Notes under the pieces: generated by a model
Seen by the model: only the letters and a program-made list of their open reading frames with translations
Told to the model about the DNA's origin: nothing
Database searches by the model: none
Program-made: the position numbers and the translations under genes
In this document: piece after piece, positions 49,440 to 52,114 of the stretch
How positions within the stretch are numbered: the first letter of the stretch is position 1
Layout: the number at the start of each line of letters is the position of its first letter
Source: Escherichia coli
Lineage (GTDB): Bacteria; Pseudomonadota; Gammaproteobacteria; Enterobacterales; Enterobacteriaceae
Length of the DNA: 64,000 nt
NCBI RefSeq assembly: GCF_003790525.1
Contig: NZ_CP033635.1
Reading direction: 5' to 3' (one strand)

Positions 49440-50217
49440 AACTGATAAAAAACCCCTCTGAAAATTCTGTCAGAGGGGTGTAGTCAATAAGGAATAATAT
49501 TCAACATGGAGATGTCTTCTGGGAATGTTTACATAGCAAATGCTTTCACTCCGGTAATTAATTTCCGTGATTAACTGCTTTCGATCAATAAAGGAATTGC
49601 AAAAAGGTGATCTTGTTCACGACATCGTGGATAATAATATGCCTGATGTCTGAATCCGGAAACAGTGCTCTGGCGGGTTTCATGTGAAGTTGACGGATAA
49701 AAAAATCCGCACGACCAGACAGACGTGCGGTTTACGAAATTCGTAACAAGAGGCTTTTCTACGGATCACGTGGTGCGTGCCACGTGAAATTTTTGTAGCG
49801 CAAAATGTGTAATGTGTAAATACAAGGAAGGAAAAAGTTAAATCGGTGGAAGTCCATGCCTGCCACATGTATGTCTGCATTCCTCGTTTTGAACAGAATT
49901 CTCACCAGACATCGTGAATTTCTCATTCAATCATCAGAGATATTAACCAGGATTTTTATTGTTTTGTGATATCAGCAGTGCAGGTATACAGACATTAAAG
50001 TAATCAGGTTTATTATAACCACCTTTACAAAGTTGTATGTGTTTATAATTTAAGGATTTTAATGCCAGTCGTTTTCTGCTGCTTAAATTGAGGGTGCATA
50101 TTATACACAATAATATTCCTGGTATTATTAAATTAATAAAAGAGGATTCTTATCACTGTATTTTTGCTCCGCACTACCGTTCTGGCTGGTGAAGTAATAA
50201 TACAGGAGAATAACAGA

Positions 50218-51597
50218 ATGCTTAAAAGACGTGATGCTTTTTTAAAGAAAAGCGCGCTGGCAGTGAGTGTGGCCCTGCTGCTCTCATCTCAGGCTTTGGC
50301 TCAGGCTTATAAAACACTTTCTGAGCCATTGACGGGTACTATCTGGTTTGATAATGGCACTCAGTCACTTGAAAGTGCAAGTGTGATTGACAGAAATGGA
50401 AATGCTAACGATGGTGGTAGTGTTACTTTTACTGGAAAAAACTTTGCTGTTGGTTCCGATGCAAAAATTTGGGATGCGGATAAATCCATGGCAGTGGGAC
50501 ATAAGACAGCTGTTTTTAATGCAGACAACAGTGTCGCTCTGGGGTATGGCTCTCAGGTGAATGGAGAAAGCAATGTACTTTCTGTAGGGGCCGGTCCTTC
50601 AGGATATGGATTTTCAGTTGATGGTGCACCGGAAACCCGCCGGATTATAAATGTTTCAGATGGTGTTAAGGATAGTGATGCGGCCACAAAAGGACAGATG
50701 GACAACGCCATTGCAGATGCTGTACGGGTGTCGGGGGATGCCCTGCGTGGTGAGATAGGCGGTGTATACAGAGATGCCCGTGCTCATACTGACAGTCAGG
50801 TCACAGCAGTACGTGATGAACTGAAGGCAGAGGGAGACAGTCTGCGTGGTGAGATAGGCGGTGTATACAGAGATGCCCGTGCTCATACTGACAGTCAGGT
50901 CACAGCAGTACGTGATGAACTGAAGGCAGAGGGAGACAGTCTGCGCGGTGAGATAGGCGGTGTATACAGAGATGCCCGTGCTCATACTGACAGTCAGGTC
51001 ACAGCAGTACGTGATGAACTGAAGGCAGAGGGAGACAGTCTGCGTGGTGAGATAGGTGGTGTATACAGAGATGCCCGTGCTCATACTGACAGTCAGGTCA
51101 CAGCAGTACGTGATGAACTGAAGGCAGAGGGAGACAGTCTGCGTGGTGAGATAGGCGGTGTATACAGAGATGCCCTTAAAGAAGCGAAAAGCCAGGCAGA
51201 ACATCTCAGCGATGTGCTTGTGAAGAACAGGGCGCAGACGGATGCAGCAATAGCCTCAAATACAGCAGCGATAAGGAATAACAGTCATCGTCTGGATTTG
51301 ACGGAAGCCTGGCAGAAGATGGCGACAGAGAGAATGAATAATATGCAGGAGCAGATTAAAGAGAACCGGAAGGAGTTAAGGGAGAGTGCAGCCCAGAGCG
51401 CGGCACTGGCCGGTCTTTTCCAGCCATACAGTGTTGGAAAATTTAACGCGACAGCAGCCGTTGGTGGTTACCGTGATGAGCAGGCCATTGCGGTGGGCGT
51501 GGGCTACCGTTTCACAGAGAATGTGGCAGGAAAAGTTGCAGTTGCTGCAGGTGGGTCATCCGCATCGTGGAATGCTGGTGTGAATTTTGAGTTCTGA
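50218..51597 (+). CDS. Trimeric autotransporter adhesin (YadA/Eib-like)
   Basis: 459 aa from [28 protein letters not shown] (signal peptide, AGGAG upstream). It has YadA-head-like repeats ([21 protein letters not shown]) and a repeat stalk. The C-terminal anchor is [36 protein letters not shown]...WNAGVNFEF. Confidence 0.9.
50743..51175 (+). repeat. 99-bp tandem repeat in the adhesin stalk (4.4 copies)
   Basis: Units start at 50743, 50842, 50941, 51040 and 51139 and are nearly identical. Each encodes [33 protein letters not shown]. Confidence 0.9.
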
Positions 51598-51658
51598 CAG
51601 GTCAGGATTTAGATATCTGTCCCGGGGGGAGTCCCCCGGGATATAATGAGGTACAGAG

Positions 51659-52114
51659 ATGCTGGATATAATCCTGGCGACGAGAGATATTTATTTTGAA
51701 AAAGCCCTGCGAGAGATATTTGGAACCGTAAGCAGTCGAATCAGATATATAGAAGATGCCATATCAGACAGAAGAAGGGTGCAGTCAGGCAGGTCATTCA
51801 GATATTATTTTGTATTCTGTGATGATGAGTATACAGATATTGTTCGTATTCTTTTTACCGGAGAGGCCTGCTGTATTCTGAATAAGTCGATGCTGAATCT
51901 GAGAGCGGCCGGAGGTGTGTTGACGCTGGAAGAGCGCAGAGCGTTACTGAACCGGTATTACAGAGGTTTAAGTATTGCGGAGATTACAGAAGAGACGGGG
52001 CAGAATGACAAGACGGTATACGGTCATCTTCGTCGTGCACTGCAGCGGTCTGGATTCCGGAAGGGGCGTTTTATAAAGGGGAGAGAAGCGGCGGGGGATT
52101 CAGGTGTTGAATAA
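51659..52114 (+). CDS. LuxR/GerE-type HTH regulator
   Basis: 151 aa. The C-terminus LTLEERRALLNRYYRGLSIAEITEETGQNDKTVYGHLRRALQR is a LuxR-type HTH. It lies directly downstream of the adhesin gene. Confidence 0.7.
   Translation: MLDIILATRDIYFEKALREIFGTVSSRIRYIEDAISDRRRVQSGRSFRYYFVFCDDEYTDIVRILFTGEACCILNKSMLNLRAAGGVLTLEERRALLNRYYRGLSIAEITEETGQNDKTVYGHLRRALQRSGFRKGRFIKGREAAGDSGVE

Follow-up and report, generated by a model that had tools for sequence, protein, structure and literature searches.

A prophage-borne trimeric autotransporter adhesin of Escherichia coli paired with a diverged ORF-156-type DNA-binding protein, with copies of the cassette in a chromosomal island

Prophage-borne trimeric autotransporter adhesins (TAAs), the Eib proteins and now the Cla proteins, help pathogenic Escherichia coli to adhere, to form chains and to resist serum. 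The GenBank records of four Eib prophages, P-EibA, P-EibC, P-EibD and P-EibE (AF151091, AF151674-6), share one gene order: J, lom, orf-401, orf-191, a gap, eib, a stem-loop, orf-156 and orf-60. The Cla (ClaA/ClaB) and Yal proteins were described in Shiga toxin-producing E. coli lacking the locus of enterocyte effacement; they are EibG-related TAAs, less than 50% similar to the Eibs, and their diversification through domain shuffling and repeats has been highlighted (Kotaka et al., Nat Commun 2026, PMC13534694). ClaA and ClaB, which lack the key aspartate, do not bind immunoglobulin G (IgG) Fc, yet they mediate chain-like adherence and serum resistance (PMC13534694). Here we analysed a 64,000-nt stretch of E. 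coli DNA (contig NZ_CP033635.1 of RefSeq assembly GCF_003790525.1; hereafter the window, to which all positions refer) and concentrated on the interval 49440-52114, which holds a TAA gene and, downstream, the gene of a 151-aa DNA-binding protein. An initial annotation had described an A/T-rich leader, a 459-aa TAA with a repetitive stalk and a 151-aa open reading frame (ORF) 61 nt further on. All of these elements were found in place, with exactly that spacing.

We consider it likely that this interval is a cargo ('moron') cassette of a P-Eib-like lambdoid prophage integrated in ompW beside the trp operon, that it comprises a TAA and a linked regulator, and that the block containing it has passed from a prophage into a chromosomal island. 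The window carries a lambdoid prophage inserted in ompW next to yciEFG and trpABCDE, and the cassette is flanked by the tail-fibre region and by dinI, at the right end of the prophage; in O111 relatives of this prophage the same position holds type III effector genes. The homologue of orf-191 is the final gene of the phage structural region ahead of the cargo slot, and the gene order bears out the earlier placement of the adhesin as prophage cargo distal to the tail-fibre genes. The locus is colinear with P-EibA/C/D/E: like the Eib cassettes, it lies in a lambdoid prophage, in the same slot and in the same order (J, lom, tail fibre, orf-191, leader or gap, TAA, hairpin, small ORF of the ORF-156 type, mini-ORF), and dinI follows. 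The fibre protein is 46% identical to ORF-401 of P-EibA, and the orf-191 product 57-60% identical to ORF-191A/C/D/E. The mini-ORF at 52226-52321 occupies the position of orf-60 in the Eib prophages; no sequence similarity was found between the two, and orf-60 likewise ends in a hydrophobic segment. The same layout recurs in PhiR12_2, deposited as a complete phage genome, in which the passenger is of a third type and ORF-156 is 95% identical. Moreover, the 3' end of the P-EibA record (our locus L006, 10545-10939) matches the chromosomal flank of the window (54606-55000) at 91%. Hence, P-EibA of strain ECOR-9 was integrated at the same ompW/yciE site. Differences are found within this common frame. 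The window protein downstream of the adhesin is only about 22% identical to ORF-156, the leader is unrelated, the hairpin after the adhesin gene lacks a U-tract, and there is no eaa autotransporter gene downstream. Among prophage-borne cassettes with an Eib-type TAA, that of the window forms an uncharacterised lineage, in which the adhesin is accompanied by a diverged DNA-binding protein of the ORF-156 type.

The block extending from 49360 to 52333 recurs with 94-98% identity in a different genomic context, a chromosomal island beside phosphotransferase system and split-transketolase genes, found mostly in avian and extraintestinal E. coli strains. This agrees with the initial suggestion of a self-contained adhesin-regulator module. 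All island-type matches begin at the same point (query position 491, window 49360), because the island copies start with the last 80 bp of the phage gene orf-191, identical to the window and fused there to a transposase fragment. Since the island copies open with this 3' remnant of orf-191, the module came from a prophage. Ends of elements of the insertion sequence (IS) family IS256 lie about 110-135 bp past the right boundary of the block in both contexts, and no phage genes are annotated in the island flanks that we examined. The intact prophage junction was found in 19 of 5,426 complete genomes and the island junction in hundreds; most E. coli copies of the module are in the island and not in prophages. 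We propose that the block has moved as a unit from prophage to island. In some island copies (locus L012, 7406-8681; hits H7, H21 and H22) the IS4-family element IS421 lies between the TAA gene and the gene of the 151-aa protein. The tkt1 island of avian pathogenic E. coli (APEC) was considered as the home of these copies and rejected: in strain BEN2908 tkt1 lies at 4.23 Mb and the TAA gene at 4.87 Mb, and the paper on tkt1 makes no mention of a TAA.

The TAA frame opens at a TTG (50164), and the ATG at 50218 is preceded by AGGAG (50204-50208), 9 nt upstream; from there it encodes 459 aa ending in ...WNAGVNFEF. The protein was expected to carry a canonical C-terminal trimeric anchor. A failure of this region in the YadA_anchor profile was looked for, and the profile was passed far above its cut-off (PF03895, E = 1.2e-16, 60.9 bits against 22.7, residues 401-459); the solved YadA anchor 2lme matches at 1.4e-17. 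The N-terminus, judged by inspection, has a basic n-region, a hydrophobic core and an ALA/QA cleavage motif. Of the 'YadA-head-type repeats' announced earlier, a few putative β-roll repeats and a putative neck lie at residues ~60-170, where the protein aligns with SadA (2yo3, E = 0.019); the profile PF05658 (19.9 bits against a cut-off of 25), like PF05662 (19.5 against 28.4), remained sub-threshold. The hydrophobic periodicity is 3.67 residues in 176-319, a region where only harmonics of 33 are available and this one dominates, and about 3.5 in 320-400, the last ~80 residues of the stalk. By hydrophobic pattern each 33-residue unit consists of three hendecads, and the 3.67-residue period indicates a straight to slightly right-handed coil in the repeat stalk. 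With ~0.148 nm for every residue, the stalk would gain about 4.9 nm from each unit. The Sec signal peptide would direct the protein to the periplasm, where three C-terminal four-strand segments would form a 12-strand barrel, as in the YadA family. The passenger would then be displayed as a lollipop, with a short YadA-like β-roll head and neck on a stalk of 33-residue units and a heptad coiled coil above the anchor. By analogy with the activities shared by Eib and Cla proteins, it is predicted to work in adhesion or autoaggregation and in serum resistance.

The initial annotation likened this protein to the Eibs. The likeness holds for the locus, the slot and the anchor and fails for the passenger sequence and the IgG-binding segment. 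The last 120 residues of the TAA are 57-58% identical to those of EibA/C/D/E but only 24% to Saa and 20% to eYadA, which, judged by the anchor sequence, places it on the Eib/Cla side. The anchor type and a stalk that passes from a right- to a left-handed coiled coil are also shared with the Eibs. Over the whole protein, the window TAA falls outside the Eib family of sequences: its identity to EibA/C/D/E is 31-41% and confined to the C-terminal half, and the solved fragment of EibD (2xzr) matches only at E = 0.18. Unlike the Eibs, it has an unrelated passenger with a much smaller head, no N-terminal domain and no EibD-type saddle (gaps stand opposite both in the alignment), and its stalk is built of identical 33-aa hendecad repeats. 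The Eib segment that binds IgG Fc (around Y388 of EibD; D391 is the key Asp of EibG) is not conserved, and the Eib sequence …SGRTDRIDYAVGAIDGRV… lies opposite unrelated sequence, in a part where the alignment is uncertain. Binding of immunoglobulin Fc therefore appears unlikely for this TAA.

The Cla and Yal proteins resemble the window TAA as EibG-related adhesins diversified by domain shuffling and repeats. The Cla proteins, set against it by description only, also lack the N-terminal domain and a conserved IgG-binding residue (PMC13534694); unlike them, the window allele shows no sign of the pronounced saddle described for Cla (PMC13534694). Yal groups with Saa, whereas the window TAA is nearer the Eibs. 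The Cla/Yal genes of JNEC-KY208 were not located on a walk near ugpB, and no island was present there. YadA of Yersinia shares the signal peptide, a partly right-handed stalk and four anchor strands per chain, and its head repeats of the left-handed parallel β-roll (LPBR) type and its neck have putative counterparts in the window TAA. In contrast to the window TAA, it is plasmid-borne and VirF-regulated, its head is larger and binds collagen, its stalk repeats are pentadecads, and no ORF-156-type gene is linked to it. We rejected eYadA of APEC (Vet Res 2026) as the same gene, a 338-aa gene at cueR-ybbJ whose product is 18-20% identical. A 316-aa YadA-like protein encoded by the conjugative IncF plasmid pM12X01451 of Enterobacter cloacae (locus L017, 2309-3259) is 67% identical to the window TAA over the C-terminal 120 aa. 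Hence, this type of stalk and anchor is not confined to E. coli chromosomes.

The stalk repeat and the head vary among relatives. The array of 4.4 almost identical 33-aa units reported initially is confirmed by Tandem Repeats Finder (TRF) and by comparison copy by copy: it starts at residue 176 and stays in frame, copies 1 and 2 do not differ, copies 3 and 4 differ by one synonymous base each, and the partial fifth copy spans 37 nt. Such an array is far beyond chance. That its length would vary had been anticipated, and the comparison across the family revealed alleles with 1 to 5 units among 120 members. One allele (P0001) is the window TAA minus one repeat unit and otherwise identical. Three unrelated head types occur on the same stalk and anchor. 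For example, TUM1886 has the same prophage flanks (98-99.6% identity) and another head on its TAA, and in P0037 a third, unrelated head is fused to five 33-aa units with an identical C-terminus. This TAA with an unrelated passenger and five units (P0035/P0037) is probably a second paralogue in the source genome of the window; nothing is on record about the contigs encoding P0035. Stalk length would shift by whole units when the 99-bp repeats, being almost identical, recombine unequally or slip, and recombination would exchange heads onto the same stalk and anchor.

The second gene of the cassette had been annotated as a LuxR/GerE-type regulator. This label may hold for the class of fold but does not hold for the GerE family, since GerE was absent from the matches to Pfam (E <= 0.01) and to NCBIfam (E <= 0.1). 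The highest match was to Sigma70_r4_2 (residues 80-130, 31.2 bits against a cut-off of 25.7). Region 2 of sigma factors is lacking, only region 4 matches, and the N-terminal half is α/β in the model. The 151-aa protein is thus neither a GerE family member nor a sigma factor, and with a modelled fold and two-domain layout that resemble FixJ/NarL/RcsB, 'LuxR-type' would be right at that level only. A comparison with the ORF-156 family profile gave a probability of 94.4% in hhalign (E = 9e-8, 129 columns), and an independent link comes from PHROGs, where the ORF-156 family phrog_6585 matches residues 3-75 (E = 2.8e-4). The 151-aa protein and ORF-156 share the N-terminal motif M..ILATR..Y.E and a weak match over their full length. 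These profile and motif matches identify the 151-aa protein as a diverged full-length homologue of ORF-156, whose gene follows every eib. We found no mention of orf-156 in the literature searched. Beyond near-identical E. coli copies, no relatives of the 151-aa protein were retrieved by a word-indexed search or by a HMMER scan of 1.84 billion proteins; one partial near-identical copy is labelled Salmonella. The gene is 99-100% conserved beside the TAA gene in prophages and islands alike.

AlphaFold2 with a combined family alignment yielded a model with a predicted local distance difference test (pLDDT) score of 77, consisting of four β-α units followed by a three-helix helix-turn-helix (HTH) domain; the model from the single sequence (pLDDT 37) was unusable and was discarded. 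The protein is accordingly modelled as a truncated receiver-like domain (residues 2-79) and an HTH of the sigma-4/LuxR class (residues 90-131). The modelled fold resembles FixJ, NarL and RcsB, and its HTH resembles those of RcsB, NarL and region 4 of extracytoplasmic function (ECF) sigma factors. In the model, an α/β receiver-like domain is thus followed by an HTH of the class that regulators of the NarL/FixJ/RcsB type and ECF sigma region 4 possess. Both subfamilies have an invariant Asp55 where strand 3 ends, which is the phospho-acceptor position of these regulators. In contrast to them, the protein is about 50 residues shorter, has a four-strand receiver without the β5-α5 part, and matches neither the GerE nor the Response_reg profile. 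We infer that it is a cassette-linked transcription factor. It would be made in part by read-through of the weak hairpin after the adhesin gene, and its target would be the A/T-rich adhesin leader, host genes for motility or the cell surface, or both of these.

Several points weigh against the reading of the locus as a functional adhesin-regulator cassette. The TAA has a tiny head, for which the Pfam profiles YadA_head and YadA_stalk both score under threshold. The window allele is devoid of the ~47-aa connector that most relatives carry after the repeats, a loss that could upset the transition from a right- to a left-handed coil. No expression or functional data on this TAA lineage were found in the literature and sources searched. 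The structural model of the 151-aa protein was built on an alignment of ~22%-identical sequences, and its Foldseek E-values are weak (2e-3 and above). A regulatory role is suggested by linkage and fold, and in some island copies an IS element separates the two genes. Activation of eib is reportedly due to ibrAB, genes that are unlinked to it. Finally, the pattern of the candidate operators in the leader (Table 1) was set post hoc, making it a lead only.

Four other explanations were weighed against these data. It is improbable that the window TAA is a genuine Eib, i.e. a non-immune immunoglobulin-binding protein as its GenBank name implies. Some database records do carry this name, and the TAA gene has in common with eib its slot in the prophage, the family of the gene that follows it and the type of anchor. 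However, the name is an automated label, the similarity to EibA/C/D/E is confined to the C-terminal half, EibD fragments match only at E = 0.18, and the IgG-binding segment (…RTDRIDYAVGAIDGRV…, with Y388 in EibD) is replaced by an unrelated coiled coil; related non-Eib lineages without the key Asp fail to bind IgG Fc (PMC13534694). Still less probable is a decaying remnant in a defective prophage whose repeat count is an assembly artefact. Decay would fit with a tail-fibre gene split by IS66 and IS1414 and with the lost connector, and short-read assemblies can miscount repeats that are 98-100% identical over 433 bp. Yet the ORF is intact, with a good Shine-Dalgarno sequence, signal peptide and anchor, and its repeat copies differ only synonymously. 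The identical protein is encoded on a 5.54-Mb contig and its one-unit-shorter twin on a 5.64-Mb contig, sizes consistent with complete chromosomes. The junction without the connector is also present in other genomes, in alleles of 1, 2, 3 and 5 units, which makes it an established variant. We give almost no credence to the protein being a virion component, a tail-fibre-like adhesin of the phage rather than a bacterial surface protein: although it adjoins tail-fibre genes, and distant coiled-coil relatives go by 'tail' or 'adhesin' in PHROGs and in some phage records, it possesses a Sec signal peptide as well as a complete outer-membrane anchor of the YadA type, it is separated from the structural genes by the 778-bp leader and set off by a hairpin, and it is kept in islands whose examined flanks have no annotated phage genes.

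The fourth explanation concerns the function of the downstream gene. In other E. coli adhesin operons, linked LuxR-type TosE/TosF and PapX-type proteins repress flagellar motility, and regulators with such reciprocal control are encoded downstream of the adhesin. The 151-aa protein might likewise not regulate the adhesin but act as a host cross-regulator, for example by repressing flagellar motility, or as a phage regulator. We hold this to be unlikely, though far from negligible. Its gene has the downstream position of reciprocal-control regulators, its sequence is 99-100% conserved while the adhesin varies, some strains tolerate an IS between the two genes, and its HTH resembles those of RcsB, NarL and ECF sigma-4. 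The strict linkage to the TAA gene in both lineages and contexts, on the other hand, fits either role. A bolder version of the cassette reading, which is speculative and which we rate as rather doubtful, is that Eib-type TAA genes are never solo morons but two-gene cassettes, in which ORF-156 or the 151-aa protein, fast-diverging, restricted to E. coli and built of pseudo-receiver and sigma-4-like parts, would be a dedicated switch that couples adhesin expression to the state of the cell or prophage, and the hendecad array would be a tunable spacer setting the reach of the head beyond O-antigen or capsule.

The exact window protein is on record as AYW30314.1/WP_123891621.1, encoded on a single 5.54-Mb contig. 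The possibility that the gene is a known and characterised allele with identical repeats is thereby half borne out: the identical protein is in RefSeq, where it is uncharacterised. The coordinates of the cassette, its parts and its neighbours are collected in Table 1.

Table 1. Features of the adhesin cassette and adjacent genes (window positions; residues are those of the TAA).
Feature	Position	Strand	Evidence or remark
Collagen-like side tail-fibre gene, 3' part (orf-401 homologue)	47218..48849	+	Pfam Collagen 1.3e-52; phage_tail_N positions 77-132 only
orf-191 homologue (DUF4376, tail-fibre-associated)	48864..49439	+	PF14301 2e-20; phrog_1141 'tail fiber protein' 1.4e-62
Shared mobile block	49360..52333	.	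orf-191 last 80 bp, leader, TAA, hairpin, 151-aa gene, mini-ORF; blastn boundaries vs L001, L002
A/T-rich leader/promoter region of TAA gene	49440..50217	+	778 bp, 37% G+C, no supported ORF
10-bp perfect-stem hairpin	49452..49479	.	just 3' of orf-191 stop
Candidate operators AGGATT(T/C)T(T/A)AT	49949, 50053, 50143 (49949..50153)	+	three copies ~100 bp apart, last 270 nt of leader
Candidate sigma-70-like promoter CAGACA-16-TATTAT	49989..50016	+	sole + strand leader match
Trimeric autotransporter adhesin, 459 aa	50218..51597	+	profile, structure and ORF evidence
Signal peptide	residues 1-28, 50218-50301	+	inspection
Short putative LPBR-type head and neck	residues 29-175, 50302-50742	+	weak profile scores, SadA alignment
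Repeat stalk	residues 176-320	+	TRF array
4.4 x 99-bp tandem repeat, 33-aa units	50743..51175	+	TRF period 99, 98% matches, score 852
Heptad stalk	about residues 320-400	+	periodicity ~3.5
β-barrel anchor	residues 401-459, 51418-51594	+	PF03895, 2lme
11-bp G+C-rich hairpin in 61-nt spacer	51618..51643	+	no U-tract
151-aa DNA-binding protein	51659..52114	+	diverged ORF-156-family member
Hydrophobic mini-ORF, 31 codons, MKITKAAFIFALSVWSVAVICLLLFVLVVLG	52226..52321	+	candidate gene only
IS1414 copy B (IS256 family)	52467..53786	-	8-bp target duplication GAGAGAAT; present in TUM1886 too
dinI-like gene	53851..54069	-	phrog_189 6.3e-21; 85% identity to PhiR12_2 DinI; TUM1886 annotation

The non-coding parts of the cassette offer a few candidate control elements. 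The leader has the A/T-rich, non-coding character and the length (~780 bp) first ascribed to it. It has no similarity to the eib leaders (blastn against the P-Eib records), an RfaH ops element was not found in it, and nothing significant was returned by Rfam for 49300-52500. The hairpin just after orf-191 is preceded by an A-run, and is therefore terminator-like on the minus strand. The promoter scan gave fewer sites than shuffled sequences, so that the sigma-70-like candidate is weak evidence. The candidate operator pattern has three matches where 0.09 were expected in the whole window, all of them in the leader. A 22-bp near-perfect palindrome, TCACGTGG-TGCGTG-CCACGTGA, lies in mid-leader at 49766-49787, 431 nt upstream of the start; it is followed by AAATTTTTG and is terminator-like on the plus strand. 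The hairpin in the spacer after the TAA gene occupies the place of the true intrinsic terminators that follow eibA/C/E, and since it lacks a U-tract, read-through into the 151-aa gene is plausible. The mini-ORF is the last element within the shared block.

The surroundings of the cassette have been altered by insertion sequences. The side tail-fibre gene contains a 45-bp tandem repeat (4.9 copies, 48000-48221), and most of its product consists of collagen-like G-X-Y repeats (window 47400-48300). An ISCro1-like element of the IS66 family (44545-47209) interrupts the gene near codon 76. The first ~76 codons of the gene, at about 42960-43186, are cut off from the 3' part by this nested IS66/IS1414 insertion, the junctions being mapped by comparison with TUM1886, and the prophage is probably defective for side fibres. 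An IS1414 copy at 43230-44549 (target duplication GAGAGCTC) abuts or is nested in the left end of the IS66-family element. It is 99.9% identical to, and in the same orientation as, the copy at 52467-53786, and together they flank the fibre, orf-191, TAA and HTH genes. A composite transposon made of the two copies was rejected: each has its own 8-bp target duplication. They are hence independent insertions and did not deliver the block, although recombination between them could delete or mobilise it. The dinI-like gene is the conserved right-end gene of these prophages and is followed by truncated ompW, the attachment site, and yciE. Elsewhere in the prophage there are genes for tRNA-Met (CAT) and tRNA-Arg (TCT), at 17182-17335; no ORF of at least 120 aa is listed between them and 18180, and hence they are not followed by a gene of the size of stxA.

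Of the new points, the most useful are that adhesin and ORF-156-type gene form a conserved pair, the prophage-to-island transfer, and the direct evidence of variation in repeat number and of head swaps. The label 'immunoglobulin-binding protein' is probably wrong for this lineage, which matters for surveillance. The Eib slot emerges as a general exchange site, where different heads and stalk repeat numbers are combined on one anchor, and the cassette with its linked small DNA-binding gene has escaped from a prophage to an island that many avian and extraintestinal E. coli carry. With this pairing, the whole adhesin class gains a concrete candidate regulator; if the dedicated switch were true, an entire class of prophage-borne adhesins would have a cognate regulator that has gone unrecognised.

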